In this document: positions 4,686-26,432 of the stretch, one piece after another
How the letters are laid out: each line of letters opens with the position of its first letter
How positions within the stretch are numbered: position 1 is the first letter of the stretch
Assembly (NCBI GenBank): GCA_964403755.1
Contig: CAYOHO010000001.1
Span: 1-26,432 of the forward strand
Direction: 5' to 3'
Length of the DNA: 26,432 nucleotides
Source: an uncultured Oscillospiraceae bacterium
Lineage (GTDB): Bacteria; Bacillota; Clostridia; Saccharofermentanales; UBA5734
Program-made: the position numbers and the translations under genes
The notes under the pieces: generated by a model
What the model was told of the DNA's origin: nothing
The model's input: the letters and a program-made list of their open reading frames with translations, nothing else
The model's database searches: none

Positions 4686-6115
4686 GCCCTTCCTCCAGTC
4701 TCCGCTGCCGGCACATACAGGACGTTGAAGTCGCAGAGGTTCGTGCCGGTATTGCCGGTCAGGATTGTATCGCCGAGGGCGTCGAGGGACTCGAAGCAGG
4801 CATGCCCGCGCAGTCCGGCGCGCAGGTCGATGCCGCTTCCGGAGGCCCGGCGTGCGGTCTGTGAATCCGTGATGCCGCCGGCAACCGACGTGGTGCCGTC
4901 CGTGCCTTCGGAATCGATTGAAAGCAGGCAGGCGCCAGGCACACTGCCGGCGGTGAGCGCAAAGCTGGCAACCATCTCCTGTCCGGGCCCGCCATGTCCG
5001 GCAATCTGCTGATTGTCCAGGATGGTCGTCACAGCCTCGCCGGAGCTCAGCACCAGGCACGGCGCGGAGACCGGATTGCCGTAGGTCTGGATCTCCCGCG
5101 CCAGCGCAGCCATCACCGTGCCGATATCCTTGGCTTCACCGTCCAGGAACGAGCTGAGGATGACGGCCGGGATGCCCATCTCGCCGGCGATCTCCCTGGC
5201 GTAGCGGCAGGAGTCCGGCACGGTGTTGATCAGGTAATAGGTGTTGTCCGGGAAGGCCTTGGGCGTCTCACCCTCCGGGCCGGCGTTCATCAGGTAGTCG
5301 ACGACGGAACGGGGAAGGCGGTCCTCCACCTGGTATTCCCGGATGACGCGGCGGGCATCCTCGAGGGTCGTCTGGTCGGGCCCCATCGGCGTCGCGCGGT
5401 ATCTGGCGTAAGGGACACTGATATCGCCGGTCGGCGGCGAGGCAATCGCATCGCTGATGCCGAATCCGATCAGGGTGCCGCCGCGGCGCTGGATCCGCCT
5501 GGCCAGCATGCCCCCGTTCATCTGCGAGATATGGCGCCGGATGGCATTGATTTCAAAGATGTTGGCTCCGGACTTCAGCATGACATCGGTCGTGTCGATC
5601 TCGTCCTGCAGGGTGATGCCATCGATTGGCAGGCTCATCAGGGCCGAGCTGCCGCCGCTCATCACGACCAGGAACAGGTCATCCGGCCCGCTGGCGTCAA
5701 CGATATCGAGGATTTCCCGGCACGCCTTCATGCCGGTCTCGTTCGGCAAGGGGTGGCCGCCGACAAACACCCGCGTCTTGCGGAAGACATCCGCAGGCTC
5801 GGCAATCTTGACGATTGCGATGCCATCGGTCAGCCAGTCGCCCAGGATCTCGTCAATAGCCATTGCCATCGCATTGCAGGCCTTGCCGGCGCCGATCAGG
5901 TAGACATGGCGCCTGGCCGCCAGATCCCAGCTCCGGTCGCCGATGCGCAGGATCTGGCCGTCCCGGTGAACGATCTGCCGGATCCGCGCGTAGGCATTCA
6001 GGCGGACGAGCGTCCGCTCCACAAGGTCCAGCACGATGCGTCGGGATTCCGTATCCCCATGAGCCGTCAGGCGCTCCCGGTTCTTGATGATTGCAGCCAC
6101 GATATCCTCCCGCAT
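4682..6115 (-). CDS. MOFRL/DUF4147 family kinase (glycerate 2-kinase / TtuD-like), divergent
   Basis: Start placed at MREDIV (6115); 477 aa. Motifs IGAGKA, GGHPLP, SGGSSAL, GANIFEIN, SGEA, GTDG and TGNTGTNLCD match the glycerate-2-kinase fold. Confidence 0.88.
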   Translation of the reverse strand: MREDIVAAIIKNRERLTAHGDTESRRIVLDLVERTLVRLNAYARIRQIVHRDGQILRIGDRSWDLAARRHVYLIGAGKACNAMAMAIDEILGDWLTDGIAIVKIAEPADVFRKTRVFVGGHPLPNETGMKACREILDIVDASGPDDLFLVVMSGGSSALMSLPIDGITLQDEIDTTDVMLKSGANIFEINAIRRHISQMNGGMLARRIQRRGGTLIGFGISDAIASPPTGDISVPYARYRATPMGPDQTTLEDARRVIREYQVEDRLPRSVVDYLMNAGPEGETPKAFPDNTYYLINTVPDSCRYAREIAGEMGIPAVILSSFLDGEAKDIGTVMAALAREIQTYGNPVSAPCLVLSSGEAVTTILDNQQIAGHGGPGQEMVASFALTAGSVPGACLLSIDSEGTDGTTSVAGGITDSQTARRASGSGIDLRAGLRGHACFESLDALGDTILTGNTGTNLCDFNVLYVPAAETGGRA

Positions 6116-6211
6116 CTGCCTTTTCCCTGCCGGAACGGAGTCCGTCTGACAGGCAGGGCTGGCTGATCTGCGCAATATTGCCAGCTCCGGGCCGACAAGC
6201 CCTTCCTTATG

Positions 6212-13106: not shown

Positions 13107-14552
13107 CTAAAGCGTCCTGACGCGGATGTGCTTGATGTTGAGGTACTCGTAGAGGCCTTCCGAGCCGTGCTCGTGGCCGAAGCCGCTGGCCTTCCAGCCG
13201 CCGTAGGGGGCATTGATGACGCCGGCGTCGACATTGTTGATCGCGACGTTTCCGGCCTCGATGGCCAGCGACAGGCGGCGGGCCAGGCTGAGGCTCTCGG
13301 TGAAAACGATGGCGGCGAGCCCGTAGACGGTATCGTTGGCCAGGCCGATGACCTCGTCGATGCTGTCGAAGGGCATGACGCCGACAACCGGGCCGAATGT
13401 CTCCTCCTGCATGACCTTCATCGAATGGTCGACGTCGCGCAGGACGGTCGGCTCGAAGAAGTTGCCCTTCGCGAAGCGCTCACCCGCCGGCTTTCGGCCG
13501 CCGCAGCAGATCTTCGCGCCCTTGGCCAGCGCGTCGGCGATGTGGTCCTCGGCGGTGTGCACGCCCTTGGCGGTGCACATCGGCCCGAGGTCGACCTTTT
13601 CGGTGAGGCCGTCGCCGAAGGTAAGCTTCTGCGTCTGGGCGGCGAACTTCTCGAGGAAGGCCTCGTAGATCGGCCGGGCGACGTAGATGCGGTTGACGGC
13701 GATGCAGATCTGGCCCATGTTGCGGAAGCTGCGGCGCACGGCGCCGGCGACGGCCGCGTCGAGCTTCGCGTCTTCGCAGACGATCATCGGCAGGCTGCCG
13801 CCGAGCTCGAGCGACAGGCGCTTGAGGCTCTGGCTCGCCTTGGCCATGATCTGGCGGCCGACCGCCGTGGAGCCGGTGAAGGCGATCTTGCGCACGTCCG
13901 GATGCTCGGCCAGGCGGTCGCCGACGGTGGCGCCGGGACCCGTGATGAGGTTGAGCGCACCGGCCGGAACGCCGGCGGCCAGGACGGCGCGCACGAAGGC
14001 GATGGCGCTGAGCGGCGTCTCCGACGGAACCTTGAGCACAACGGTGCAGCCGGCAGCGAGCGCGCCGCCGACCTTCCACGCCAGCAGCTCGATCGGATAG
14101 TTCCAGGGTGAGATGCAGGCGGCGACGCCGACCGGCTGATAGACGACGTGGCTCTCGATGTCGTTGCCGTCCTCATTGGGGATGATGCGGCCGAAGACGC
14201 GCTCGCCCTCCTCGGCATAATAGGCCAGGATCTGGGCGCCCTTGCGGACTTCACCGGTGGCCTCGGCCAGGGGCTTGCCTTGCTCGCGCGTCATCAGGCC
14301 GGCGATCTCCGCCTGGTTCTCGAGCACGAGCCGGGAGGCCTCGCGCAGGATGCGGCCGCGCTGGAACGGGGTCGTCCTCGACCAGGCCGGGAAGGCCGCC
14401 TTCGCGGCCGCGACGGCGGCATCGACTTCTTCGGCGCCGCCCTTCGGGACGGTGGCGAAGACCTCATTGTCGACGGGGTTGCGGACCTCGATCACCGCGC
14501 CGGACGCGGCGTCGGTCCACTGGCCGTTGATGAGCATCTTTTCCTGGATCAT
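13107..14552 (-). CDS. NAD(P)-dependent aldehyde dehydrogenase (succinate-semialdehyde dehydrogenase-like subgroup); substrate unknown
   Basis: 481 aa with an AAGGAG ribosome-binding site. Motifs PWNYP, KVPSETP, FTGSTAVG, catalytic Glu in LELGG, catalytic Cys in GQICIA, and EETFGP. Confidence 0.92.
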   Translation of the reverse strand: MIQEKMLINGQWTDAASGAVIEVRNPVDNEVFATVPKGGAEEVDAAVAAAKAAFPAWSRTTPFQRGRILREASRLVLENQAEIAGLMTREQGKPLAEATGEVRKGAQILAYYAEEGERVFGRIIPNEDGNDIESHVVYQPVGVAACISPWNYPIELLAWKVGGALAAGCTVVLKVPSETPLSAIAFVRAVLAAGVPAGALNLITGPGATVGDRLAEHPDVRKIAFTGSTAVGRQIMAKASQSLKRLSLELGGSLPMIVCEDAKLDAAVAGAVRRSFRNMGQICIAVNRIYVARPIYEAFLEKFAAQTQKLTFGDGLTEKVDLGPMCTAKGVHTAEDHIADALAKGAKICCGGRKPAGERFAKGNFFEPTVLRDVDHSMKVMQEETFGPVVGVMPFDSIDEVIGLANDTVYGLAAIVFTESLSLARRLSLAIEAGNVAINNVDAGVINAPYGGWKASGFGHEHGSEGLYEYLNIKHIRVRTL

Positions 14553-14625
14553 GGTGGCTTTCTCCTTAGCATGGGCCGGTCGGTGTCAGCGGGCGCCGGC
14601 CGGGCGGTTTTACGGGCGATCGGTT

Positions 14626-15786
14626 CTAGCGGATCTCCGGCAGGAACGAGGTCCCGACCGGGAAGGCGAGCCCGAAGTAGTCGGCGATGGTGGCGGCAAT
14701 GTCGGCGAACGTCGCGCGGGTGCCGAGGTTGACGCCGTGCTTCAGCCTGGGGCCCCAGACGAGCAGCGGTGTGTGCTCGCGGGTGTGGTCGGTTCCCGGC
14801 GTGGTCGGGTCGCAGCCGTGGTCGGCCGTGATCACGAGGATGTCGTCGTCGTGCAGCAGGCCCAGGATCGCGGGCACGTGGGCATCGAAGGCCTCGAGGG
14901 CGCGGGCGTAGCCGACCGGGTTGTTGCGGTGGCCGTACAGCATGTCGAAGTCGACCAGGTTGACGAAGAGCAGGCCGTCGAAGTCCGTGGCGAGGAAGCG
15001 TTCCGTTGCCGCCGTGCCCTCGGCGTTGTTCTTCGTATGGTCGATGCGGGTGATGCCGACGCGGTTGAAGATGTCCTCGATCTTGCCGACGGCGATGACG
15101 TCCTTGCCGGCTGCCTTGAGCGCGTCGAGCACGGTCGGCCCGGGCGGGTCGATCGAAAAGTCGCGCCGGTTCTCGGTGCGGACGTAGGCGCCGGACGTGC
15201 CGGTGAACGGGCGGCAGATGATGCGGCTGACGGTGTCGTCGCCCATCATCAGGGCCCGGGCAATGCGGCAGATCTCGTACTGGCGCTCGAGCGGGATGAC
15301 GCTCTCGTGCATGGCGATCTGCATCAGGCTGTCGGCCGAAAGGTAAACGATCGGGTAGCCGGTGCGCACATGCTCGTCGCCGAGCACCTGGATGATCTCG
15401 GTGCCCGATGCCGGGTAGTTACCGATCACCTTCGTGCCGATGCGGCGCTCCAGCTCGCTGATGATGCGCGGCGGGAACGAGTCGCCGAACACGGGGTACG
15501 GCTTCTCCATGACCAGGCCGGCAATCTCGAAGTGGCCGGTCGTCGTGTCCTTGGCGCAGGAGCGCTCGATGCATTTCCCGTAGGCGCCGGTGGGGGCGTC
15601 CACGCCCTCGAGGCCGACGCCGTCGATGTTGTAGAGGCCGAGCGACATCATGTTGGGGATCCGGAGGTCGCCAACGTGCTCCTTGATGTGCTTCAGGGTG
15701 TGGGTGCCGGTGTCTCCGAAGTCGGCGGCATCCGGCAGCTCGCCGACGCCGAAGCTGTCGAGGACGATGATGGTAAAGCGTCCCAT
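14626..15786 (-). CDS. deoB: Phosphopentomutase
   Basis: 386 aa. Motifs [66 protein letters not shown] and DHTRE. Confidence 0.95.
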
Positions 15787-15789
15787 GGC

Positions 15790-16752
15790 TCAGCCAGCCT
15801 CCTTTTCGCGGCTCTTCCTCTTCCCGCCCCGGCTGCTGAGCTTGCCCTGCTTGCGCAGCTTCTCGGAGTAGGAGCTGATGGCCAGGGCGACCAGCGCCAG
15901 GATGAAGGGGAACATGCGGATGATCGAGGACGGCATGCCGGTGCTTGCCAGCTCGATGCGGATGCCGATCGCGTCGGCCAGGCCGAAGAGCAGGGTGACC
16001 AGCCAGACGGCGATGGGGTGGGCGGCGCCGAAGACGACGGCCGTGAAGGCGGTGAAGCCTCGGCCCTGGACCATGTTCTCGGAGAACTGGGAGACCATTT
16101 CCGTCGAGAGATACATGCCGGCCAGGCCGCTGAAGGCGCCGGAAAGCAGGACGACCTGCCAGCGGATGCGGTCGGGACGGATGCCGGCCGTGCGCGCGGC
16201 GTCCTCCGACTCGCCGACGGCGCAGATCTTGAGGCCGGCTTCGGTGCGGAAGAGCACGATAAAGGTGATTACGACCAGCAGGATGGCGAAGTAGTCGACG
16301 ATGCTGTGCTTGCTGATGACGCCGCCGATGAAGGGGATCTGGCCGATGAGCGGCAGGTCGATCGGCTCGAGCTTGTGGATGACGGCCGGCTTGAGACGGC
16401 CCTGGACGCTGAAAACCGCCCGCAGGAGGTAGGCCGTGATGCCGAGGCTGAACATGTTGATGGCGATGCCGGCGATGATGGCATTGGCCTTGAAGCGGAT
16501 CACGGAGAGGCCAAACACGGCGCTGAGCAGCAGGCCGGCCAGCATGGCGCCGAGCATGCCCATCCAGACGCTGCCGCCGAACCAGGAGACAAAGGCGATG
16601 CTGGAGAAGGCACCGAAGAGCATGAAGCCCTCGAGGGCAATGTTGAAGACGGCTGCGCGCTGGCAGAGCAGGCCGCCGATCGCCGCCAGGATCAGCGGCG
16701 TCGAGATGCGGATCATCGAGGCAAAGGTGTCGGCGTTGAAGAACTCGTTCAT
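15790..16752 (-). CDS. Nucleoside ABC transporter permease 2 (NupC-like)
   Basis: 320 aa. TPLILAAIGG...FNIALEG, LKICAVGESEDAARTAGI and GRGFTA. ATGA overlap with the upstream permease. Confidence 0.9.
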   Translation of the reverse strand: MNEFFNADTFASMIRISTPLILAAIGGLLCQRAAVFNIALEGFMLFGAFSSIAFVSWFGGSVWMGMLGAMLAGLLLSAVFGLSVIRFKANAIIAGIAINMFSLGITAYLLRAVFSVQGRLKPAVIHKLEPIDLPLIGQIPFIGGVISKHSIVDYFAILLVVITFIVLFRTEAGLKICAVGESEDAARTAGIRPDRIRWQVVLLSGAFSGLAGMYLSTEMVSQFSENMVQGRGFTAFTAVVFGAAHPIAVWLVTLLFGLADAIGIRIELASTGMPSSIIRMFPFILALVALAISSYSEKLRKQGKLSSRGGKRKSREKEAG

Positions 16753-17846
16753 GTCCGGTCTCCTTCCGCTTTCAGGGCTGCGGCATCGGCCTTGCGGCGC
16801 CGCTTGAGCAGGCGCGGCACGGTCATCCGGGCGCTGATGGTGATGATGACGATGGCCATGACGATTTCCGTGACGGCCGACGGCACGTCGGTGACGCGCT
16901 CCATGTTGATGCCGCCGTTCTTCAGCGCGCCGAAGAAGAAGCCGGAGAAGATGACGCCGATCGGATTGTTGTTGGCGAGCAGCGAGACGACCACGCCGTT
17001 GAAGCCGAGGCCCGGGTTGAAGGCAGCCAGCAGGCGGTGCTGGATCGCGGTGACCTCGATCGCGCCGATCAGGCCGCCGATGGAGCCGCTGATCAGCATG
17101 ACCTGGAGCGTGATCCGGTTCGGGCTGATGCCGGCATAATGCGCCAGGGTCGGGTTCGCGCCGACGATCTTGATCTCGTGGCCGATGGTCATGCGGTAGA
17201 AGACGACGGCCAGGATGACGGCGGCGATGAGCGCAATGTAGAAGCCGATATTGGCCTCGGACGGCTGCAGGTAGGCGAGGCGCGGCAGCCAGGTGTTCTT
17301 GCCGAAGAGCGGGCTGGCATTGAGGTTGACGCCGGTGGAGGTGTCGCGCAGCGGACCGATGACCAGGTATTCGATGAAGTTGAGGGCGATGAAGTTGAGC
17401 AGCAGGGTCGAGACGACCTCGTTGGTGTTCAGGTAGACCTTGAGCAGGGCCGGCAGCAGGGCAAACAGGGCTCCGGCCAGCATCGCGGCGATGAAGACGG
17501 TGACGATCGCCAGCGGCGCCGGCAGGTCCGGGATGCGCAGAGCGACAACCGTGGCGGCCGCGGCGCCCATGTAGATCTGGCCGTCGACGCCGAGGTTGAA
17601 CACCTCGGCCTTGTAGGTGACGCAGATCGCCAGGCCGGCCAGGATCATGGGCGTAGCCCAGCGGATGGTGCCGGAGATGTCCGACGTCAGGCCGTCGATG
17701 ATGCCGTTGACGATGGCGGCCATGTCGTACTTCGCGACCGCCAGGAACAGCGACGCCAGCAGCAGCGAGACGGCGATCATGAGAACCTGCCGGCCCACGG
17801 TAAGGGTCGTTTCGCGCAGGACGCGGTTAGGAGCGGCTGGCTTCAT
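16749..17846 (-). CDS. Nucleoside ABC transporter permease 1 (NupB-like)
   Basis: Start placed at MKPAAP (17846), 8 nt after GGAGG; 365 aa. FNLGVDGQIYMG, NEVVSTLLLNFIA, GHEIKIVGANP and GFNGVVVSLLANNNPIG. Confidence 0.9.
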   Translation of the reverse strand: MKPAAPNRVLRETTLTVGRQVLMIAVSLLLASLFLAVAKYDMAAIVNGIIDGLTSDISGTIRWATPMILAGLAICVTYKAEVFNLGVDGQIYMGAAAATVVALRIPDLPAPLAIVTVFIAAMLAGALFALLPALLKVYLNTNEVVSTLLLNFIALNFIEYLVIGPLRDTSTGVNLNASPLFGKNTWLPRLAYLQPSEANIGFYIALIAAVILAVVFYRMTIGHEIKIVGANPTLAHYAGISPNRITLQVMLISGSIGGLIGAIEVTAIQHRLLAAFNPGLGFNGVVVSLLANNNPIGVIFSGFFFGALKNGGINMERVTDVPSAVTEIVMAIVIITISARMTVPRLLKRRRKADAAALKAEGDRT

Positions 17847-19368
17847 GGGTTTCACCTCCCTGTCGATGGGCGCCCATCATGTAGACACCCAGTGTGTTTT
17901 CGTCGAGGTCCTCGCGGCCAAATTCGGCGACGATTTCCCCTTCATACATGACGAGGACCCGGTCGGACAGCGACAGGATCTCGTCGAGCTCGGCCGAGAC
18001 CAGGAAGACTGACTTGCCGCTGTCTCGGGTCTCGATAAGCTTGCGGTGCAGGTACTCGATGGCGCCGATGTCGACGCCGCGGGTCGGCTGCGCCGCAATC
18101 AGCAGCTCGGGGTCGACCTCCAGCTCGCGGGCGAAGACCACCTTCTGCATGTTGCCGCCGGATAGCGTCGAGAGCTTGAAGGTCGGGTCCGGCGTCTTGA
18201 CCATGAAACGGTCGCAGAGCTCCGTCGCCAGCTGCGCCAGGCGCCGCGTGTCGAGGAACTTGTGGCGGCTGTAGGGCCGCTGGTAGTAGCGGTTGAGGAT
18301 CAGGTTGTCCTGGATCGAGCAGGTCTTGGCCGTGCCCATCTTGAGGCGGTCCTCCGGGATGTGAGCCATGCCCAGCTCGCGGCGCCGGCGGACATCGGCC
18401 TGGGTGATGTCCTTGCCGAGGAATGTCACCGTGCCGCCGGTCGGCCGGATCATGCCGGTGATCGCCTCGATCAGCTCGGTCTGGCCGTTGCCCTCGACAC
18501 CGGCAATGCCGACGATCTCGCCGCGCCGGACCTCGAAGCTGACGCCCCGCAGGGCCGGCAGGCCGCGCTGGTTGAGCGCGCTCAGGCCGGCGACCTTGAG
18601 GATGGGCTCCTTTGGGCTGTAGGGCGCGCGCGGGATGTTGAGGTCGACATCACGGCCGACCATCAGGTTCGAGAGCTCATGCATGTTGGTCTCGGCCTTC
18701 TTCACGCGGCCGGTCACGACACCCTTGCGCATGACCGTGATCGTGTCGGTGATGGCCATGACCTCCTTGAGCTTGTGGGTGATGAAGATGATCGTGCAGC
18801 CCTGTTCGCGCAGCTTGCCCATGACCTCGAGCAGCTTCTTGGTCTCGAGCGGCGTCAGAACGGCCGTCGGCTCGTCCAGAATCAGGACCTTTGCCTCGCG
18901 GTAGAGGGCCTTGATGATCTCCACCCGCTGCTTCTCGCCCACCGAGAGCTGGAAGATGCGGGCGTCGAGGTCAACCGGCAGGTTGTACTGCTTCATGATC
19001 CCCTCGATCTTCTGGCGCGCGGTCTTCTCGTCGATCAGGCCGAGGCGGTTCGGCGTGCGTCCGAGGATGATGTTCTGCAGGACCGTCAGGTTGGGCATGA
19101 GCATGAAGTGCTGGTGCACCATGCCGATGCCCGACTCGATGGCCATGAAGGGCGAGGCAATGGCCGTCTCCTTGCCGAACAGCAGGATGCGGCCGGCGTC
19201 GGGACGGGTCATGCCGTAGAGGATGTTCATCATCGTGGACTTGCCGGCGCCGTTCTCGCCGATGAGCCCGTGGATCTCGCCCTCGGCGATCCGGATCGTC
19301 GCATCGTTGTTGGCGATGACGCCGGGATAGAACTTGGAGATGTTGGTCATTTCAACAGCGTAGGCCAT
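17827..19368 (-). CDS. Nucleoside ABC transporter ATPase with two fused nucleotide-binding domains (NupA-like)
   Basis: 513 aa. Walker A GENGAGKS, GMVHQHF, LSVGEKQRVE, ILDEPT, ITHK; second domain AGVEGNGQ, LSGGNMQK, AQPTRGVDIGA. Confidence 0.95.
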   Translation of the reverse strand: MAYAVEMTNISKFYPGVIANNDATIRIAEGEIHGLIGENGAGKSTMMNILYGMTRPDAGRILLFGKETAIASPFMAIESGIGMVHQHFMLMPNLTVLQNIILGRTPNRLGLIDEKTARQKIEGIMKQYNLPVDLDARIFQLSVGEKQRVEIIKALYREAKVLILDEPTAVLTPLETKKLLEVMGKLREQGCTIIFITHKLKEVMAITDTITVMRKGVVTGRVKKAETNMHELSNLMVGRDVDLNIPRAPYSPKEPILKVAGLSALNQRGLPALRGVSFEVRRGEIVGIAGVEGNGQTELIEAITGMIRPTGGTVTFLGKDITQADVRRRRELGMAHIPEDRLKMGTAKTCSIQDNLILNRYYQRPYSRHKFLDTRRLAQLATELCDRFMVKTPDPTFKLSTLSGGNMQKVVFARELEVDPELLIAAQPTRGVDIGAIEYLHRKLIETRDSGKSVFLVSAELDEILSLSDRVLVMYEGEIVAEFGREDLDENTLGVYMMGAHRQGGETHEASRS

Positions 19369-19401
19369 ATGTGCGCTCCTGACTGCCTGCGGCCGGCCGC
19401 T

Positions 19402-20244
19402 TCAGCGGACGACCTGGTGCGGCATGCGGCCTTCCCGGTCCCACTGGGCCAGGATCGTCATGGCTTCGGATGCGGCCAGGCAGGCCTTGGCTTCACCGCC
19501 GTTGTCGCCCCAGCGGTCAAGGACACGGTTCGAGATGACGGACAGGATGGCGCCCATGCGCATGCCGTGGAGATAGCCGACGACATACTGTCCGGAGGTT
19601 TCCATTTCAATGTTGGTGACGCGGGCCGACTGCAGGTCGGGGATGATCTTCTCGGCGAACGACGGCCAGTAGCCGGAGCCATCATCGTTCAGGGGCCTTC
19701 CCTGGCCGATGTAGAAGGAGCCGACGGTATAGCCGAGGCCGAGGCCGTAGCGGAAGCCGAGCCGCTCGCAGGCCTGCATGAGGGCCATCACCACATAGGT
19801 GTTCGCGAAGGCCGGGAACTCGGGCTCGATGTAGGTGGCCGAGGTGCCGTCCTTGCGGATGCAGGCGACCGGGATGATGAGGTCGCCGAGGTCAAAGTCG
19901 GGGACGATGCAGCCGGTCGTGCCGACGCGGATGCAGGTGTGCACGCCGAGCGTGTTGAGCTCGTGGATGCAGATCTCGGAGCTCGGTCCGCCGATGCCGG
20001 TGGAGGTGGCGGCGATGAACATGTCCTTGTACTTGCCGGAGACGGTCTTGTATTCGCGGTAGGAGGCGACCTCCTTGACATCGGTCCAGTCCTTCGCGAT
20101 CTTCAGCGTGCGCTCCGGCGCGCCGGGCAGGATCACATAGGGCGGGACATCGCCGGGCTTCAGCTGCAGGTGGTAGACGCCTGCATTGGCCGCCTTGGGC
20201 GCGGTTGCGCGGTTGACGCTGTCACTGGTCTGGTTTTCGCTCAT
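19402..20244 (-). CDS. udp: Uridine (pyrimidine nucleoside) phosphorylase, NP-I family
   Basis: Start placed at MSENQ (20244, GAGGAGG upstream); 280 aa. YHLQL, PGAPER, REY, STGIGGPS, IRVGTTG, GQGR (uracil-binding Gln-x-Arg of Udp), IEMETS and SNR. Confidence 0.8.
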   Translation of the reverse strand: MSENQTSDSVNRATAPKAANAGVYHLQLKPGDVPPYVILPGAPERTLKIAKDWTDVKEVASYREYKTVSGKYKDMFIAATSTGIGGPSSEICIHELNTLGVHTCIRVGTTGCIVPDFDLGDLIIPVACIRKDGTSATYIEPEFPAFANTYVVMALMQACERLGFRYGLGLGYTVGSFYIGQGRPLNDDGSGYWPSFAEKIIPDLQSARVTNIEMETSGQYVVGYLHGMRMGAILSVISNRVLDRWGDNGGEAKACLAASEAMTILAQWDREGRMPHQVVR

Positions 20245-20266
20245 GGTCGTCCTCCTCATGGATGGG

Positions 20267-20301
20267 CGGCCGCCGGGCAGGGAACGCCGGCCCGGCGGCC
20301 G
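20267..20301. other. Intercistronic stem-loop (12-bp perfect stem) between the BMP gene and udp
   Basis: cggccgccgggc (20267-20278) and gcccggcggccg (20290-20301), with an 11-nt loop. Confidence 0.6.
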
Positions 20302-20334
20302 TCTCTTGTTATGCGTTGTGGTTCGGGGCAGGCT

Positions 20335-20379
20335 GCCATGAAGCTTTGCTTCAGGCCGCCATGAAGCTTCGCTTCAGGC
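20335..20379. repeat. Tandem 22-bp direct repeat (period 23), each copy a small hairpin
   Basis: gccatgaagctttgcttcaggc (20335-20356) and gccatgaagcttcgcttcaggc (20358-20379) differ at one base. Each has the core TGAAGC-TTY-GCTTCA. Confidence 0.9.
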
Positions 20380-20384
20380 GGGGA

Positions 20385-21551
20385 TCACTTTTCGGCCTTG
20401 ATGGTGGCCCAGTTCGGGGTCTTGGTGTCGAAGGCGATCTTCAGGGAGCCGTCCATGATCTTCTTCTCCAGGGCCTTCATGTCGGCGATGGCAGCCGTCG
20501 CGGCGGCGCCGCCGTACTTGGTGTTTTCCTTGGCAAAGCGCTCATAGGAGGTGTAGTCCATGAAGTAGCCGCCGTTCTCGAGGCCGCGGATGCCATGCTC
20601 GCCGACCGGGAACTTGTTCTGGACAGCCATCTGGACGGAGGCGTAGACGGTGTTGCCGAAGCCGATGCCGACGATGCCGGCAAAGTCCTTGGTGGTGCTG
20701 TAGAAGTCGGTGATCTCGCCGGCGACCATGATGCCGGCGGCCTTGGCGGCCTCGACGGCGCCGGCATTGGAGGCGCCGGAGTCGTTCTGGATGAAGTCAA
20801 CGCCCTTGGCGATCATGGCCTTGCCGATTTCCTTGGCCTTGGCAGGATCTTCATAGCTGCCGACATAGGAGAACTCGACGGTGGCATTGGGGTTGGCGGC
20901 CTTGACACCGCGCATGAAGCCGTTGCCTTCGGCATTGGTGGAGAGCTCTTCGGAACCGATCTGCATGCCCACCTTGCCGGACTTGCTGACCTTGGCGGCA
21001 AAGTAGCCGGCCAGATAGAAGGCGGCTTCGCCGTGGAACTCGGTGTCCCAGATGTTGTCGATCTTGGTGCCGCCGACGTTGATGAACTGGAAGATGGCGG
21101 AGAACTTCGTCTTCGGGTATTCCTTGGCGATCAGCTTGGTGGCGTCGCTCATGTACGGGAAGGTGGTGATGATCAGGTCATAGCCAGCCTTGGCCATGGC
21201 GCGGACATCGGCCTCGAAGTTGGCGGCGGAGGCGGACTCGAGCTTCTTGGTGGTGATGCCGAAGTCCTTCTCGGCGCGGGCGAGGCCGGCGGCCATGTCA
21301 TCCATCGGGCCGTTGTCGCCGAACTTCTGGTTGACGACGAGGGCGACCTTCAGCTTGGCCGGGGCAGCGGTCGTTGCAGCCGTGGTGGCGGCCGTGGTGG
21401 CGGCCGTGGTGGCGGCTGTGGTGGCGGCGGTCGTGGCAGCGGAGGTAGCCTTGGTCGTGGCGGCGGTCGTGGTGGCGGCGGTGCCGCAGCCGGCGACCAG
21501 GGTCAGCAGCATGGCCAGGGTCAGGATCAGGGCGAAGATGCGTTTTTTCAT
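20385..21551 (-). CDS. BMP family (PnrA/TmpC-like) ABC substrate-binding lipoprotein
   Basis: 388 aa with an AAGGAG ribosome-binding site. Signal peptide MKKR plus a hydrophobic stretch and lipobox LVAG/C, then a Thr/Ala linker. BMP-like segments EAAFYLAGYFAA, GFMRGVKAANP, YVGSYEDPAKAKE and KGVDFI. Confidence 0.9.
   Translation of the reverse strand: MKKRIFALILTLAMLLTLVAGCGTAATTTAATTKATSAATTAATTAATTAATTAATTAATTAAPAKLKVALVVNQKFGDNGPMDDMAAGLARAEKDFGITTKKLESASAANFEADVRAMAKAGYDLIITTFPYMSDATKLIAKEYPKTKFSAIFQFINVGGTKIDNIWDTEFHGEAAFYLAGYFAAKVSKSGKVGMQIGSEELSTNAEGNGFMRGVKAANPNATVEFSYVGSYEDPAKAKEIGKAMIAKGVDFIQNDSGASNAGAVEAAKAAGIMVAGEITDFYSTTKDFAGIVGIGFGNTVYASVQMAVQNKFPVGEHGIRGLENGGYFMDYTSYERFAKENTKYGGAAATAAIADMKALEKKIMDGSLKIAFDTKTPNWATIKAEK
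21367..21438 (-). repeat. In-frame 12-bp tandem repeat encoding (AATT)6 in the lipoprotein linker
   Basis: The plus-strand unit gccgtggtggcg is perfect at 21379, 21391 and 21403, has one mismatch at 21415, and has degenerate flanking copies. Confidence 0.9.
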
Positions 21552-21755
21552 GGGTGTGCTCCTTCTTTGTTTTTGTCCTTGGCGCTTTGGCCTTGGTTCT
21601 CACAGAGGGACTTTTCGGGGCGGATTGCTTGCGCGGGTCCGTTGCTCTGGCGTCGGGTGCGGTTTCATTTCTGGCGATGGATGAGGCTCTGGCAGTTCAT
21701 CGGGTCATCGGGGAAGTGCTTCCGTGGTTACAGCTGTGCGGGGCGGGCTTGGGCA

Positions 21756-22220
21756 TCAGGGATCGAGCAGTCCGGGGCCGTTGCCTTCCTCCCAGGCAAA
21801 GACCTCCCAGATGTTCTCTTCGTAGTCCTGATAGTAGGCGGCTCGGGAGCCGAAAGGATACGTGGTCGGCGGCATGGCGCAGGCGACGCCGCGGCCGGTC
21901 AGCTCGGCATGGATGGCATCGACGTCGGCCAGCGACGGGACCTTCACCGCGATCATGAAGCGATGGCCGGTGCCGCCGAGGAAACGGGCGTCCATGACGG
22001 TCTCCACGCCCGACTTGGCCCACAGGGTCACGCTCGTGCCCTGGAACTCGAACTCGGCGTAGTTGGCATGTTCGGCGTCAGGCTGCAGCCGCTTGACCCG
22101 GAAGCCGAACTTTTCGGTATAGAACTTGAGGGAATTCTCGAAGTCCGTCACGAAAAGGCAAATGTCATTCACCTTGGTGAGCTTTTCGCGTGCATCCATG
22201 TCCGTCTGATCATCCTCCAT
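21756..22220 (-). CDS. VOC (glyoxalase / bleomycin-resistance) family protein
   Basis: 154 aa from the track start; an alternative start is MDAREK at 22199. The VOC pattern is present: ICLFVTDFENSLKFYTEKFGF, IAVKV...VDAIHAELTGRGV, PFGSRAAYYQDYEENIWEV. Confidence 0.85.
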   Translation of the reverse strand: MEDDQTDMDAREKLTKVNDICLFVTDFENSLKFYTEKFGFRVKRLQPDAEHANYAEFEFQGTSVTLWAKSGVETVMDARFLGGTGHRFMIAVKVPSLADVDAIHAELTGRGVACAMPPTTYPFGSRAAYYQDYEENIWEVFAWEEGNGPGLLDP

Positions 22221-22234
22221 TCATTCCTGCAGCA

Positions 22235-22312
22235 GCCGGCTGGCCGGGCTGCTGCTTTTGCGCTGCTGATGCCGGCTGGCCGGGCTGCTGCTTTTGCGCT
22301 GCTGATGCCGGC
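22235..22312. repeat. Perfect 36-bp tandem duplication plus a 6-bp partial third copy in the SDR-VOC gap
   Basis: gccggctggccgggctgctgcttttgcgctgctgat at 22235-22270 and 22271-22306, followed by gccggc. Confidence 0.92.
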
Positions 22313-22487
22313 GGGTCCGGCGGAGCCTGCGGGACGGTCGGGGCCGGTGCGGCCGGCCGGTCCGGTGCCTGCTGGCTGAGGTTCTGCAGAGTCTTGTGGC
22401 GGAAGCGGGCGGCCGCATTCTGCCGGGCGGCCTGCCGGGATCCGGCGGGCACGGAGCCGCCACCCGGCTTCCTTCGCCTGGCGCCGC

Positions 22488-23282
22488 TCATTGGCGGGTG
22501 ACGCCGGCGTCGACGTTGATGGCCTGGCCGCGGATCAGGATGGCGGCATCCGAGGCCAGGAAGGTCACGATCCGGCCGACCTCGACGGGCTGGACGAGCC
22601 GGCCGAGCTGGGGCGGTCCCCAGGTGCGGCGGAGGTCATCGATGCTGGGCTTGTCTTCCGGAATCCGGGCGATGGTTTCCTCCATGCAGTAGCGGAGCAT
22701 TTCCGTGTCCACCCCGCCGGGGCAGACGGCATTGACGTTGATGCCGGCAGCGGCCAGCTCGAGCGACAGGCTCTGCGTGAGGTTGATGACGGCCGCCTTG
22801 GAGGCGTTGTAGTGGGCCTGCCCCGGGAAGCAGACCTTGCCGGCATTGGAGGCGATGTTGATGATGCTGCCGGTGCAGCCGGCTTGCTGGAGTCGGGCGG
22901 CAAAGCGCTGGCAGCAGCGGAAGACGCCGGTCACGTTGACGGCAAAGACGCGTTCCCACTGGCTGCCGGAAATCTCCTGCAGGTCCTGCATGCGCGTGAT
23001 GCCGGCGTTGTTGACCAGGATGTCGGGCTCGCCGAGGCGGGCCGCGGTCTCGGCGAATGCCGCCGCGACACTGGCGTCATCCGTGACGTCGAGTGTCACC
23101 GGCAGGACATCCAGGCCCCGGGCGGCCAGGTCGGCTGCTGCCGACTGCAGGGCGTCGGCCCGGATATCGGCGATGGCGACCCGCGCCCCGGCCTGGCCGA
23201 GCGCCAGGGCGATGCCGCGGCCGAGTCCGCCGCTGCCGCCGGTGATGAACGCCACGCGTCCTTTCAGGCTGGTCATGTCCAT
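22488..23282 (-). CDS. Classical SDR oxidoreductase, predicted NAD(H)-preferring
   Basis: 264 aa with a GAAAGGAG ribosome-binding site. TGGSGGLG, Asp at the end of beta2 (IADI), NNAG, IASNAG, YNASK and NAVCPG. Confidence 0.93.
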   Translation of the reverse strand: MDMTSLKGRVAFITGGSGGLGRGIALALGQAGARVAIADIRADALQSAAADLAARGLDVLPVTLDVTDDASVAAAFAETAARLGEPDILVNNAGITRMQDLQEISGSQWERVFAVNVTGVFRCCQRFAARLQQAGCTGSIINIASNAGKVCFPGQAHYNASKAAVINLTQSLSLELAAAGINVNAVCPGGVDTEMLRYCMEETIARIPEDKPSIDDLRRTWGPPQLGRLVQPVEVGRIVTFLASDAAILIRGQAINVDAGVTRQ

Positions 23283-23293
23283 GGATGCTCCTT

Positions 23294-24148
23294 TCAGTAG
23301 GCGGGGGCGAGCGTGACGCCGCCGTCCGCGGTCAGGGTCTGCCCGGTGATCCAGCTGGCCAGCGGTGAGGCCAGGAAGAGGCAGATGTTGCCGATATCAG
23401 CCGGCTGCCCGGCCCGGCCGAGCGGCGCCCGGGCGATGAAGCGCTCGCGCCAGCCCGGAACGTAGACATCGAGCAGCGGGCTGTCGATGAGTCCCGGCGC
23501 GATGGCGTTGACCCGGATCCGGCGCGGCCCGAGCTCCACGGCCAGGGAGCGGGTCATCATCTCGATGCCGGCCTTCGAGGCACCGTAGTGGATGGCGTTG
23601 GCCAGCGGGGTTGTGCCGTTGATCGACGAGATCGAGATGATCGCGCCGCCGGCCGGGGCGCTGGCAGCGACTGAGCCGGCCGTGGTTCCGGCCGTGGTGC
23701 CGGCCGGGGCGGCGCCTTCCGGGGCGCCGGCCATGTGGCGGGCCGCCGCCTGGGAGCAGAAGAAGCAGCCGCGCAGGTTCGTGTCCAGCACCCGGTTCCA
23801 GGAGGCGGCGTCGACATCGAAGAGGGGCTTGCCGTCGCTGTGCACGCCGGCGTTGTTGACCAGGACGTCGATGCGGCCGAAGCGGGCGGCGATGGCCGCC
23901 ATGACGGCGGTGCACTGCCCGGGGTCGGACTGGTCGAGCGCAAATGCTTCGGCGTCGCAGCCCAGGGCGGCCAGTCCGGCCAGGACATCCGACGCTTCAT
24001 CGGCGTGTGTGCAGTATGTGATCGCCACCGAGGCGCCGGCGAGGGCGAACCGGCGGGCGATCCCCGCGCCCATGCCCTTGCCGCCGCCCGTCACCACCAC
24101 GGTCTGGCCAGAAAAGTCAAGCATCTTGAGGATCTCTTCCTGGATCAT
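23294..24148 (-). CDS. Classical SDR oxidoreductase, predicted NADP(H)-preferring, with an Ala/Gly/Thr/Pro insertion
   Basis: Start placed at MIQEEI (24148, GGAGGAG upstream); 284 aa. TGGGKGMG, no acidic residue after beta2, NNAG, ISS, YGASK, NAIAPG and ITGQTLTADGG. Confidence 0.92.
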   Translation of the reverse strand: MIQEEILKMLDFSGQTVVVTGGGKGMGAGIARRFALAGASVAITYCTHADEASDVLAGLAALGCDAEAFALDQSDPGQCTAVMAAIAARFGRIDVLVNNAGVHSDGKPLFDVDAASWNRVLDTNLRGCFFCSQAAARHMAGAPEGAAPAGTTAGTTAGSVAASAPAGGAIISISSINGTTPLANAIHYGASKAGIEMMTRSLAVELGPRRIRVNAIAPGLIDSPLLDVYVPGWRERFIARAPLGRAGQPADIGNICLFLASPLASWITGQTLTADGGVTLAPAY

Positions 24149-24175
24149 CCTGTCTCCTCCCATCACCCTGGACGG

Positions 24176-25498
24176 TCACGCCAGCGCGGCGGCAACCCGC
24201 TCAGAGGTTTCGCTGACCCGGGCGCGCAGCGCCTCCAGGTCGAGGGTCATCAGCCGGCCCCGCTCGACGACCCGGCGTCCGCCGACCAGGACATCGGTCA
24301 CGTCGCGGCCGGTGGCGGCATAGACGACGCTCGACGTGACATTCTCGAAGGCGCCGAGGCGCAGCGGCGTGAGGTGGGCCCGGGCAGCATCGATCAGGAT
24401 GAGGTCGGCGCGCCGGCCTTCCGCGATGCTCCCGGCATCATCGCCGAGTCCAAAGGTGCGGGCGCCGTTGATGGTCGCCATGTCGAGCACATCGGTGACC
24501 TTCAGGCTGCGGATGCCCGAGTTCACGGTATGCAGCAGCATCATGCCCTTCATCTCGCGGAACAGGTCGCTGCTGTTGTTCCACATGGCGCCGTCGGTGC
24601 CGAGACTGACGCAGACGCCGGCGCGGACCATCTCGGGGATATGGGCGATGCCGTCGGCGATCTTCATCTCGCAGAGCGGCGTGTTGACGACCTTGACGTC
24701 ATGCGCGGCCAGCAGTTCGATATCGCGGGGCGTTGTCCAGACAACATGCGAACCGATCAGCCGGTCCGACAGGCAGCCGCAGTCGGCCAGGTACTCGACC
24801 GGCGTGCGGTCATAGAGCCGGCGGATGCGCTCAATGCGCCAGTCCGTCTCGGCAAGGTGGCAGGTCAGCAGGGCATCGAGCCCGCGGCGCTTCGCCTCGA
24901 CACGCTGCAGCAGTCCGGCCTCGAAGTCCTCCTCCGAAAGGCCGCCGATCACCGGCACCAGGCCCTGGCTGCGGGCCCGTCCGGCCAGGGTGGCCAGTTC
25001 CGCGTCCGAGAGCAGCTCCTGGGGACGGGAGAACTCATAGCGGATGTCCTCGGTCAGGGCGCCGCCGATGCCGACAGCCGTCATGGCCTCGGCAGAGCGC
25101 TCGCCCAGGCCCCAGAACATGTTCTCATTGATGAAGGTGGTTCCGGCCAGCAGCGCCTCGCAGTAGGCCAGCTGGCGGGCATGGAAGCGGTCGTCGTCGC
25201 TGATGAGGGTAGAGAACCAGCCGGTGGCGGCAAAGCGCTCGTTCTGCTCCTGCAGGGTCAGGTCATCGCCGAGGCCACGGGCGAAGGTCATGTCGCCGTG
25301 GCAGTGTCCATTGAACAGGCCGGGCATGAGGATGCTCCCGCTGGCGTCGATGCGCTCGGCAGCCTCGCCGGGCGCAACCGGCCGCTCGCCGACATAGGCG
25401 ATGCGCCCATCGGCGATGCCGACGCTGCCGATGAACGGGACATAGCCGTTGTGCTGCGACAGGATGATGGCTCCATTGATGGCGGTCGAAAGCGGCAT
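24176..25498 (-). CDS. Amidohydrolase-superfamily metal-dependent deaminase (MtaD/SsnA/cytosine-deaminase-like group); substrate unknown
   Basis: 440 aa with a GGAGGA ribosome-binding site. MPGLFNGHCH (HxH), CHLAE, GSHVVW, LGTDG, ATINGARTFG, GSIAEGRRADLI and DVTDVLVGGR. Confidence 0.88.
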   Translation of the reverse strand: MPLSTAINGAIILSQHNGYVPFIGSVGIADGRIAYVGERPVAPGEAAERIDASGSILMPGLFNGHCHGDMTFARGLGDDLTLQEQNERFAATGWFSTLISDDDRFHARQLAYCEALLAGTTFINENMFWGLGERSAEAMTAVGIGGALTEDIRYEFSRPQELLSDAELATLAGRARSQGLVPVIGGLSEEDFEAGLLQRVEAKRRGLDALLTCHLAETDWRIERIRRLYDRTPVEYLADCGCLSDRLIGSHVVWTTPRDIELLAAHDVKVVNTPLCEMKIADGIAHIPEMVRAGVCVSLGTDGAMWNNSSDLFREMKGMMLLHTVNSGIRSLKVTDVLDMATINGARTFGLGDDAGSIAEGRRADLILIDAARAHLTPLRLGAFENVTSSVVYAATGRDVTDVLVGGRRVVERGRLMTLDLEALRARVSETSERVAAALA

Positions 25499-25599
25499 CT
25501 GGATTCCTCCATGCGGTCGGATGGATGCGGGGCTGGTTCAGGTCGGGCCGGGTTTCCGGTGGGCGGACGCCGTCTGCGTGCGTCCGGCGGGATCATGCC

Positions 25600-26432
25600 T
25601 CAGTAGGCGGCCGCGTAGATGGCGGCGACATCTTCCGCGTAAAGAGGACGGAAGAAGCCGACCGGGCCGGAGCGGCAGGTGCTGCGGGCCAGGGCCTCCA
25701 GCTGGGCGCGGTCCTCGATCTTCAGCTCGCGCAGCGTCAGGGGCATGCCGAGCGTGCGGAAGAAGGCCGTCATCTGCTCGATGCCACGCCGGGCGGTCCG
25801 CTCCGGATCATACGGGTCGATGTCGACATCGAAGACGCGGCTGGCGAACTGGACGAAGCGCGGCAGGCGGTCGCGGTAGACATGGGTCGCCAGGGCCGGC
25901 AGCAGGACGGAGATCGTCTCGCCATGGACGGCATTGAACGTGCCGCTGAGGGGGGCGCCGATCATGTGGCAGGCCCAGTCCTGGTTGCGGCCGGTGCCGA
26001 CGAGGCCGTTATGGGCCAGGATCGAGAGCCACATCAGGTCGGCGCGGGCATGGTAGTCCGCGGGATTGTGCATGACCTTGTCGGCATTGGTGATGATGGC
26101 CTTCATCAGGCCCTCGCAGATGCGGTCGGTGGCCTCGGTCTCGACCGAGGTGGAGAAGTAGCGCTCGGTGACGTGCGAGAACATGTCGACGATGCCCGCC
26201 GCCGTCTGGCGCGGCGGCAGGGTGAAGGTGCGCTCGGGGTTCATCAGCACGAAGGCCGGGCGGTGGATGTCGCCCATGATGTCGAGCTTTTCGCCGGTAG
26301 CGGCATTGGTGATGACCGAGCCGTTGCTGGCTTCGCTTCCGGTCGAGGCGATCGTCATCACGACACCGACCGGCAGGGCCCGGGTGCAGGTGGCCTGATG
26401 GGTGTAGAAGTCCCAGACGTCGCCCTCGTAGG
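25600..26432 (-). CDS. Iron-containing alcohol dehydrogenase (BdhA/YqhD-like butanol dehydrogenase group), 5' end cut by the window edge
   Basis: The frame stays open past the track start (26361) to the edge: YEGDVWDFY...ALPVGVVMTIASTGSEASNGSVITN. Metal ligands are present in DMFSH, CHMI and VHG. Confidence 0.9.
   Translation of the reverse strand, partial: YEGDVWDFYTHQATCTRALPVGVVMTIASTGSEASNGSVITNAATGEKLDIMGDIHRPAFVLMNPERTFTLPPRQTAAGIVDMFSHVTERYFSTSVETEATDRICEGLMKAIITNADKVMHNPADYHARADLMWLSILAHNGLVGTGRNQDWACHMIGAPLSGTFNAVHGETISVLLPALATHVYRDRLPRFVQFASRVFDVDIDPYDPERTARRGIEQMTAFFRTLGMPLTLRELKIEDRAQLEALARSTCRSGPVGFFRPLYAEDVAAIYAAAY

Follow-up and report, generated by a model that had tools for sequence, protein, structure and literature searches.

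A twelve-gene nucleoside uptake and catabolism operon with additional redox and VOC genes in a bacterium of wastewater and digesters

In guts, sludge, and soil, the nucleosides released by RNA and DNA turnover serve as a major shared nutrient; little is known about what becomes of non-standard ones in anaerobes. In Firmicutes such as Lactococcus lactis and Streptococcus mutans, the closest described operons are of the deoC-cdd-bmpA(tmpC)-nupABC or rnsBACD type. Here, we analyze a contig of 26,432 bp from an uncultured Oscillospiraceae bacterium (CAYOHO010000001.1; the whole contig is called the window below), in which twelve co-directional genes on the minus strand, transcribed from 26432 to 13107, follow a comparable plan. 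Like those operons, they join a BMP lipoprotein and a CUT2-type ABC importer (double ATPase, two permeases) to a candidate nucleoside deaminase and sugar-phosphate enzymes. Unlike them, the locus carries a 440-aa cog0402 amidohydrolase rather than a zinc cytidine deaminase (Cdd), lies on a contig in whose scanned ORFs no deoC was found, and adds an iron-dependent alcohol dehydrogenase (Fe-ADH), a VOC protein, an aldehyde dehydrogenase (ALDH), and two short-chain dehydrogenases/reductases (SDR_A and SDR_B). Exactly the logic of the Firmicutes type, with Cdd and a uridine phosphorylase, is found in a Dorea locus (L056).

That the twelve genes form a nucleoside uptake and catabolism operon we hold with high confidence. 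At roughly even odds (probability ∼0.5), we read them as a composite operon of an anaerobic Clostridia-type bacterium of wastewater and digesters, in which a canonical route would be accompanied by an unassigned VOC protein and a cassette of sugar-acting SDRs. An initial annotation of the DNA had described at least 12 co-directional genes with a BMP, ABC, udp, and deoB core plus extra enzymes, and this is borne out by the open reading frames (ORFs), their translations, and the Pfam and NCBIfam matches. It had also reported the window to be free of deoC, pdp, and cytidine deaminase genes; none was found among the ORFs scanned, and those scanned outside the operon hold no deoC, pdp, or cdd domain.

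Core of the operon and its recurrence across genomes

Genes were identified from Pfam and NCBIfam profile matches, and the two permeases by orthology to Pfam-annotated copies. The phosphorylase, UdpL (19402-20259), is a uridine-phosphorylase-like NP-I enzyme (PNP_UDP_1) that matches PF01048 at 93.6 bits (cut-off 25.1); because it stays below the curated equivalog TIGR01718 (207.2 versus 280.3 bits), we place it in a divergent clade. The family is very tight, with 75-94% identity across Clostridia, Treponema, and Synergistaceae in protein searches, and its best solved relatives are the uridine phosphorylase of Streptococcus pyogenes (PDB 3qpb) and enterobacterial Udp (E 3e-36 to 1e-32). Alignment to solved Udp structures shows that UdpL retains FYIGQGR (FYxGQxR), IEMET (Glu-Met-Glu), SNR (Asn-Arg), YHL, and R50/R68/R111; one alignment was to an E. 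coli Udp sequence, and the one to solved structures gives the same residues. In E. coli numbering, we take uracil to be bound by Gln166/Arg168/Arg223, the 5'-OH by His8, phosphate by Arg30/48/91, and ribose by the Glu-Met-Glu motif. UdpL therefore keeps the canonical residues for uracil, ribose, 5'-OH, and phosphate, with no sign of another base or of a 5'-modified sugar. In Synergistaceae and Family XIII the gene stands alone or beside transketolase, suggesting that UdpL is the ordinary uridine phosphorylase of its hosts.

The phosphopentomutase DeoB (14626-15786) passes both of its equivalogs, NF003766 with 500.7 bits (cut-off 256) and TIGR01696 with 471.5 bits (cut-off 341.2). The importer comprises a BMP/PnrA-family substrate-binding lipoprotein (20385-21551; PF02608, 141 bits), whose translation shows the lipoprotein signal MKKRIFALILTLAMLLTLVAGCG (lipobox ...LVAGCG) and a Thr/Ala-rich linker, a CUT2-type ABC ATPase with two ATP-binding domains (17827-19368; NCBIfam matches of sugar/nucleoside ABC ATPase type, all below cut-off), and two permeases of BPD_transp_2 type, permease 1 (16749-17855) and permease 2 (15790-16752). 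Orthologues of both permeases in L001, L045, and L053 match PF02653, and the L053 copies are 87% and 88% identical, respectively. The lipoprotein cysteine is immediately followed by an (A-A-T-T)n linker, which the BMP gene encodes in 8.5 copies of a 12-bp repeat (21379-21483). The BMP/PnrA family also binds riboflavin and B6. Matches that would name the BMP protein and the ATPase a "B6 transporter" were dropped, as they score far below cut-off (the B6 substrate-binding protein model, the sole named hit of the BMP protein, reaches 71 against 400).

A scan for UdpL in species-representative genomes gave 39 loci, onto which the window proteins were mapped; counts refer to the 25 loci with enough flanking DNA. 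The amidohydrolase lies beside UdpL in 18 of the 25, the VOC protein and the ABC ATPase in 16 each, Fe-ADH and the BMP protein in 15 each, DeoB in 10, DeoC in 8, ALDH in 6, and the SDR pair in none. In Clostridia and spirochaetes, UdpL and the BMP-ABC importer thus have Fe-ADH, VOC, and the amidohydrolase as partners in a conserved core, overall in 13-18 of the 25 genomes. Because the gene order of this core varies among lineages, functional linkage explains it better than common descent of one arrangement. The initial annotation had read all the extra enzymes as part of one pathway with the nucleoside genes; by these counts, the amidohydrolase, VOC, and Fe-ADH are no chance neighbors, whereas the SDRs do not belong to the conserved core. 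Cultured carriers of the core include Faecalicatena contorta and Mediterraneibacter spp.

In Lachnospiraceae, Oscillibacter, and Treponema, sister clusters run in the order DeoC, a 437-aa TAL_FSA-like protein, (DUF1097), VOC, DeoB, Fe-ADH, amidohydrolase, BMP, UdpL, ABC genes, (transketolase), DeoR. The 229-aa product of their first gene is DeoC (TIGR00126, 151 bits versus a cut-off of 117). The 437-aa protein beside it (L001 2565-3878, L045 2813-4126, and orthologues) matches TAL_FSA weakly (40 bits), gave no NCBIfam match and no solved relative in a PDB search, and may be a novel aldolase or transaldolase.

Versions from Christensenellaceae and Oscillospiraceae lack DeoB and carry instead a class II aldolase, a PHP phosphoesterase, a DHDPS-like enzyme, an ALDH, and a PGDH-like 2-hydroxyacid dehydrogenase, a replacement that suggests another sugar-phosphate route. 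They represent two different arrangements (L021 3735-5596 and 14560-17970; L047 10871-16093), and one DeoB-less cluster also carries a pyrimidine-nucleoside phosphorylase. In L006-L008, only the amidohydrolase and UdpL are kept, flanked by Mem_trans genes of the auxin-efflux-carrier family (L006 7525-8634 and 10862-11800), with RpiB nearby and the ABC importer replaced. The amidohydrolase-UdpL pair is the tightest link of the cluster.

The gene order in the window is not an assembly artefact, because the amidohydrolase/SDR_A, SDR_B/spacer, and spacer/VOC junctions are each spanned without mismatch by short contigs of independent wastewater runs, and because a second contig, L053, has the twelve genes in identical order. 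Eleven of the L053 proteins, compared directly with those of the window, are 76-93% identical; for the L053 Fe-ADH the comparison was with the L001 copy alone. Many metagenomes of wastewater, sludge, and anaerobic digesters contain near-identical sequence.

The first gene of the operon, Fe-ADH (25600->26430), is truncated at its 5' end by the end of the contig, so that the C-terminal 276 codons are present and the N-terminal ∼110 are likely lost beyond it. The initial annotation expected the operon to run on past this edge with more enzymes, which is probably not so. In L049-L052, whose amidohydrolase is 74-75% identical, Fe-ADH is first, with a MerR-family gene divergent upstream, and is followed by amidohydrolase, VOC, BMP, UdpL, ABC genes, DeoB, ALDH, and Mem_trans, the SDRs being absent; in L053, ∼500 bp of non-coding DNA and unrelated genes precede Fe-ADH. 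Since Fe-ADH comes first in all these closest relatives (L049-L053), the operon most likely begins with it and no more enzymes are to be expected upstream. Mem_trans genes follow ALDH in L049 (20545-21326) and L053 (18334-18589); the window has no such gene.

Unassigned enzymes and the SDR cassette

The amidohydrolase (24176-25498) is of the cog0402 deaminase/chlorohydrolase type (PF01979, Amidohydro_1; 150.8 bits) and joins no named equivalog: 59 NCBIfam models matched, all below cut-off (best 256.8 versus 609), the named equivalogs considered being the 5'-methylthioadenosine/S-adenosylhomocysteine (MTA/SAH), 5'-deoxyadenosine (5'-dAdo), guanine, cytosine, and 8-oxoguanine deaminases. Its top NCBIfam matches are TRZ/ATZ, 5'-deoxyadenosine deaminase, and MTA/SAH deaminase models, its best PDB match is the MTA/SAH deaminase 4f0r (1e-48), and it scores weakly on a dihydropyrimidinase model (42 bits). 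Across 120 homologues, H65-C66-H67, H214, E217, H251, and D302 are invariant, making up the full cog0402 catalytic set of HxH, HxxE, His, and Asp, alongside many further family-specific residues. We regard the protein as a probable nucleoside deaminase.

The VOC protein (21756-22220, with a likely true start at the ATG at 22199) has a glyoxalase/bleomycin-resistance fold (PF00903, 57 bits versus a cut-off of 20.6) and does not belong to the glyoxalase I equivalog (NF050074, 20 bits versus 165); its best PDB match is 4mym. Among cluster orthologues it is 56-82% identical, with little or no variation at E56, H86, and E139, which occupy canonical metal-ligand positions, or at N18 and C21; the first ligand position is Asn18/Asp19 rather than His. 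The retention of three of the four canonical metal-ligand positions and an invariant Cys favors an enzyme over a drug-binding protein, and VOC is probably metal-dependent. A single-sequence structure model (pLDDT 57.7) is too poor for the geometry of the metal site. In one Oscillospiraceae cluster, two more VOC paralogues, 40-43% identical (L047 16484-17394), lie beside HMGL-like, thiolase-like, and DUF35-type genes.

Fe-ADH matches PF25137 and PF00465, its best NCBIfam model is the YqhD-type PRK15138, and its full-length L049 orthologue is closest to PDB 7w9x, 1vlj, BdhA, and YqhD; by these matches it is an aldehyde reductase of the BdhA/YqhD type. The last gene of the operon (13107-14552) encodes an NAD(P)-dependent ALDH resembling GabD, a succinate-semialdehyde dehydrogenase (PF00171, 571 bits), with E. 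coli GabD as best PDB match (3jz4, 3e-136) and NCBIfam cut-offs not reached.

Both SDRs are classical, and their genes form a separate cassette set between those of the amidohydrolase and VOC. SDR_A (23294-24166) is glucose-1-dehydrogenase-like and matches PF13561 and PF00106 in two stretches, whereas SDR_B (22488-23282) is acetoin-reductase/polyol-dehydrogenase-like by its Pfam matches, with N116, S145, Y158, and K162 invariant among orthologues. PDB searches, run for SDR_A with the L053 orthologue, returned generic relatives only. A low-complexity Ala/Gly/Thr insert in SDR_A (23600-23720; ...APEGAAPAGTTAGTTAGSVAASAPAGG...) splits its Pfam match in two. The insert holds a 12-bp tandem repeat (23675-23706) and varies in length: the L053 orthologue is 29 aa shorter, and two wastewater runs have 9 bases in place of 23658-23717, a 51-bp in-frame variant. 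Recent horizontal gain of the SDRs was considered and rejected, as their raw GC content is high, but GC at third codon positions (0.89-0.90) equals that of the neighbors, leaving no compositional signal.

Absent from the core loci and from L049-L052, and present in L053, the pair recurs elsewhere, on gut and environmental contigs, in different company. In Pseudoflavonifractor phocaeensis the order is LacI, SDR, SDR, BMP, ABC, permease, NP-I phosphorylase; in the Dorea locus it is LacI, SDR, SDR, BMP, ABC genes, S. pyogenes-type uridine phosphorylase, Cdd; and on a Eubacteriales contig it is GntR, permease, SDR, SDR, BMP, ABC, permease, PsuG, PsuK. PsuG/PsuK directly follow SDR-SDR-BMP-ABC, with a GntR regulator, in L058 (6257-14523) and L063 (5942-14200). 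We define the cassette as a pair of neighboring SDR genes, with ≥44% identity of the second to SDR_B, beside a BMP-ABC importer and/or a nucleoside-cleaving enzyme; it is carried by the window, L053, L054-L058, and metagenome loci.

A metagenome scan with an SDR_B alignment yielded 80 loci, which were split by identity to SDR_B. Of the 33 loci with ≥44% identity to SDR_B, 30 have an SDR_A-like gene immediately upstream, compared with 5/18 of the more distant SDRs, and a BMP, NP-I phosphorylase, cog0402 amidohydrolase, or PsuG gene is in the flank of 15/24 SDR_B-like loci (≥44%), compared with 4/16 distant ones. Environmental arrangements include phosphorylase-BMP-ABC-permeases-SDR-SDR-amidohydrolase (L122) and phosphorylase-SDR-SDR-amidohydrolase (L074, L083); the phosphorylases of these clusters lack the uracil-binding Gln/Arg, and their amidohydrolases are closer to 5'-deoxyadenosine/MTA deaminase models. 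The remaining SDR_B-like loci have genes for a TOBE-domain ABC protein and a ModA-like binding protein as neighbors, in what seems to be unrelated synteny within a single lineage. A search for the SDR-SDR-VOC-BMP-udp neighborhood, proposed with the initial annotation, thus had a divided outcome: the SDR pair does recur beside BMP importers and nucleoside enzymes, whereas the nearest relatives lack the SDRs in an otherwise identical order. Because the pair accompanies uracil-type, Cdd-linked, pseudouridine, and non-uracil enzymes alike, we infer that it most likely acts on the part that these substrates share, the sugar of the imported nucleosides.

ABC/permease 1, permease 1/permease 2, and permease 2/DeoB overlap or nearly touch, and other gaps measure 9-125 bp, apart from two larger spacers of 267 bp (SDR_B-VOC, 22221-22487) and 204 bp (VOC-BMP). 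The former holds a 36-bp tandem repeat (22235-22320; 2.4 copies, 96% matches) right at the junction of the SDR cassette and the core genes, and a 93-aa ORF inside it has no Pfam match. A 23-bp tandem repeat of 2.2 copies (20329-20379) lies in the BMP-UdpL spacer. An Rfam scan found no RNA family at threshold, and a promoter scan, itself uninformative, returned 0 sites.

The rest of the contig (919-12974) holds an unrelated gene set, apparently for amino-acid or small-acid metabolism, that is not conserved beside the operon in relatives. It comprises three M20 peptidases, an AraC regulator, an ornithine cyclodeaminase/mu-crystallin protein, DUF3100, a C45-type acyltransferase, an enolase-like protein (3408-5060, minus strand), and a DUF4147/MOFRL glycerate-kinase-like protein (4682-6175, minus strand). 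The gene that follows ALDH is an M20 peptidase gene convergent with the operon.

Proposed route and competing explanations

In the composite reading, nucleosides would be imported by the BMP lipoprotein and the CUT2-type ABC importer, as their homology indicates. The cog0402 amidohydrolase would deaminate an aminated, cytidine-type nucleoside in place of Cdd, a step proposed because of its near-constant pairing with UdpL and its intact catalytic set. UdpL would then phosphorolyze the uridine-type nucleoside to a uracil-type base and (deoxy)ribose-1-phosphate, which DeoB, going by its family membership, would convert to the pentose-5-phosphate. This product would pass into central metabolism or, where DeoC is available, yield glyceraldehyde-3-phosphate and an aldehyde (acetaldehyde) that Fe-ADH might reduce and the GabD-like ALDH might oxidize. 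The SDR pair could carry out NAD(P)-linked oxidation and re-reduction at the sugar, letting non-standard nucleosides enter the pathway. With deoC, transketolase, and DeoR encoded in cis by sister clusters, Fe-ADH, ALDH, and DeoB would be explained by a canonical (deoxy)ribonucleoside route, and ordinary (deoxy)ribonucleoside fermentation with aldehyde disposal may explain much of the gene set. For the same reason, the absence of deoC from the window is weak evidence for a modified-nucleoside pathway.

Several observations weigh against this reading. Neither the ORFs scanned on this contig nor the nearest relatives yielded DeoC or another aldolase that could supply the aldehyde, and the ALDH is nearest to succinate-semialdehyde rather than acetaldehyde dehydrogenases. 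The nearest solved relatives of the amidohydrolase use adenosine derivatives rather than cytidine, a poor fit to a uracil-specific phosphorylase. VOC has no step in the route, the replacement of DeoB in Christensenellaceae and Oscillospiraceae is not what a simple route predicts, and about one-third of the SDR-pair loci have no nearby nucleoside gene.

The alternative that survives best, which we still consider unlikely, is a dedicated route for sugar-modified nucleosides, such as 2'-O-methyl nucleosides derived from rRNA and tRNA or arabino/xylo epimers. Editing of the sugar, by way of a keto intermediate, would fall to the SDR pair and possibly VOC, and DERA-type cleavage (by a deoxyribose-phosphate aldolase) of the modified pentose phosphate would release an unusual aldehyde, for example methoxyacetaldehyde, to be cleared by Fe-ADH and ALDH. 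The presence of the SDR pair beside importers and cleaving enzymes of varied base specificity, PsuG/PsuK included, fits a modification independent of the base, and 2'-O-methylation is found on all bases; Fe-ADH, VOC, and amidohydrolase, moreover, make up a conserved yet unexplained trio. The gene for RK9NH, a hydrolase of 2'-O-methyluridine, is clustered with a DERA-like aldolase (PMC6278475), and the catabolism of 2'-O-methyl nucleosides has been called largely unexplored, the only known demethylases being O2-dependent 2-oxoglutarate (2OG) dioxygenases (PMC12709175). Such a route has to contend with the lack of the SDR pair from the core in 25/25 species genomes, which means that the SDRs and VOC are no obligate unit, and with its chemistry: by our reasoning, a 3'-keto group does not turn the 2'-O-methyl into a beta leaving group, and an unusual enol-ether hydrolysis would be needed. 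The idea of the initial annotation that the extra enzymes act on a modified base or sugar thus stands only in part, with the sugar favored for the SDR pair, whereas no result identifies a modified substrate and the residues of UdpL look canonical.

More doubtful is a fuller proposal that divides the extra genes in two. SDR_A and SDR_B would perform oxygen-independent redox editing of the sugar of modified nucleosides (2'-O-methyl nucleosides of RNA turnover leading, epimeric ones as the alternative), turning them into ordinary ribonucleosides for phosphorylases or PsuK/PsuG, and the Fe-ADH/amidohydrolase/VOC trio would mark an undescribed anaerobic step in the breakdown of pyrimidine nucleosides.

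We give still less credence to a breakdown of the released pyrimidine itself, in which the trio, ALDH, and the Mem_trans exporter of the relatives would convert the base without oxygen to a C3 aldehyde (e.g. malonic semialdehyde) that is reduced or oxidized and exported, leaving UdpL and DeoB to handle the sugar only. The tight adjacency of amidohydrolase and UdpL is consistent with this, as are the GabD-like ALDH and YqhD/BdhA-like Fe-ADH, both of types that use short omega-functionalized aldehydes, the Mem_trans genes that follow ALDH in L049/L053 and flank amidohydrolase-UdpL in L006, and the variants with a class II aldolase of the family of IolJ, an enzyme that releases malonic semialdehyde. 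The cog0402 enzymes, however, are deaminases or dehalogenases rather than pyrimidine ring openers, in line with the low dihydropyrimidinase score; the core lacks a C5=C6 reductase and a ureidopropionase; and no VOC enzyme is known for such a step. A reductive pyrimidine route through the neighboring M20 peptidases was rejected, since those genes, on the opposite strand, run toward the operon and do not accompany it in relatives.

Equally improbable, in our view, is that Fe-ADH, VOC, ALDH, and the SDRs form a general detoxification set for reactive aldehydes (methylglyoxal and other electrophiles) that is merely co-transcribed with ordinary salvage. YqhD-type reductases, glyoxalase-fold proteins, and ALDHs all detoxify methylglyoxal, fast influx of pentose phosphate provokes methylglyoxal formation in E. 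coli, and in the nearest relatives the operon is preceded by a divergent gene for a MerR-family regulator. A set of this kind would not be expected to keep VOC and Fe-ADH beside UdpL through several independent rearrangements in three phyla, with VOC so similar among cluster orthologues and bearing its own invariant residues, nor to associate the SDR pair specifically with nucleoside genes.

Scavenging of 5'-substituted adenosines (MTA, SAH, 5'-deoxyadenosine) by deamination, phosphorolysis, and aldehyde reduction, as in the dihydroxyacetone phosphate (DHAP) shunt or the Pseudomonas route from MTA to methylthioinosine (MTI), would suit the best solved and NCBIfam relatives of the amidohydrolase, the environmental SDR-pair clusters with their closer relatives of such deaminases and their phosphorylases without uracil residues, and an Fe-ADH that could reduce the acetaldehyde or methylthioacetaldehyde formed in such a route, but we rank it lowest and very improbable because UdpL keeps the 5'-OH-binding His, along with the uracil-binding Gln/Arg, and DeoB, which requires a free 5-OH, is genuine by its family cut-off, and the window ORFs scanned include no MtnA-type isomerase or class II fuculose-type aldolase.

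Under the composite reading as under its alternatives, the locus offers two widespread, testable gene sets: a trio tied to one clade of uridine phosphorylases, and an SDR pair that follows nucleoside importers whatever the base specificity of the enzymes nearby. Assigning both would better annotate thousands of genes now called "amidohydrolase family", "VOC family", or "SDR family" and could uncover a route for modified nucleosides that needs no oxygen. Should every enzyme prove to use canonical substrates, the locus would simply be a clostridial version of the deo/cdd/udp system.

Comparison with known systems

With the E. coli deoCABD, udp, and cdd genes the operon shares the logic that leads from phosphorylase to phosphopentomutase, which its sister clusters extend to deoxyribose-phosphate aldolase and a DeoR-family regulator. 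It differs in that UdpL is ∼35% identical to E. coli-type Udp, the window has no DeoA or DeoD, an ABC importer takes the place of NupC/NupG, and there are extra redox enzymes. UdpL resembles the enterobacterial Udp structures in its base, ribose, and phosphate contacts (seen directly only in the Yersinia-type alignment), whereas it forms a tight clade of its own and, beside the Asn-Arg motif, carries Ser in place of the Val of E. coli-type Udp.

The amidohydrolase has the fold and the HxH/HxxE/H/D set of the cog0402 MTA/SAH/5'-deoxyadenosine deaminases (Tm0936; Cv1032, which is PDB 4f0r; DadD) and likewise represents a putative deaminase paired with a nucleoside phosphorylase. Unlike them, it stays below all NCBIfam cut-offs, carries an H-C-H motif, and has a partner phosphorylase of uracil rather than purine type. 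Pseudouridine catabolism by PsuK/PsuG is linked to the locus through the SDR-SDR-BMP-ABC cassette that precedes PsuG/PsuK in L058 and L063; the window itself has neither gene and carries a phosphorylase instead.

The catabolism of 2'-O-methyl nucleosides (PMC6278475, PMC12709175) offers a parallel in a nucleoside cluster with a DERA-type aldolase, which here occurs in sister clusters only, and hypothetically in a base-independent modification of the sugar; the window differs in having no nucleoside hydrolase and no dioxygenase. In the literature searched, these 2'-O-methyl nucleoside papers were the only relevant ones, and no description of the gene combination of this cluster was found. Set against known systems, the scheme that leads from import through deamination and phosphorolysis to the mutase is familiar, and the locus differs in its cog0402 enzyme in place of Cdd, its distinct Udp clade, its conserved Fe-ADH and VOC, its ALDH, and its inserted SDR cassette.

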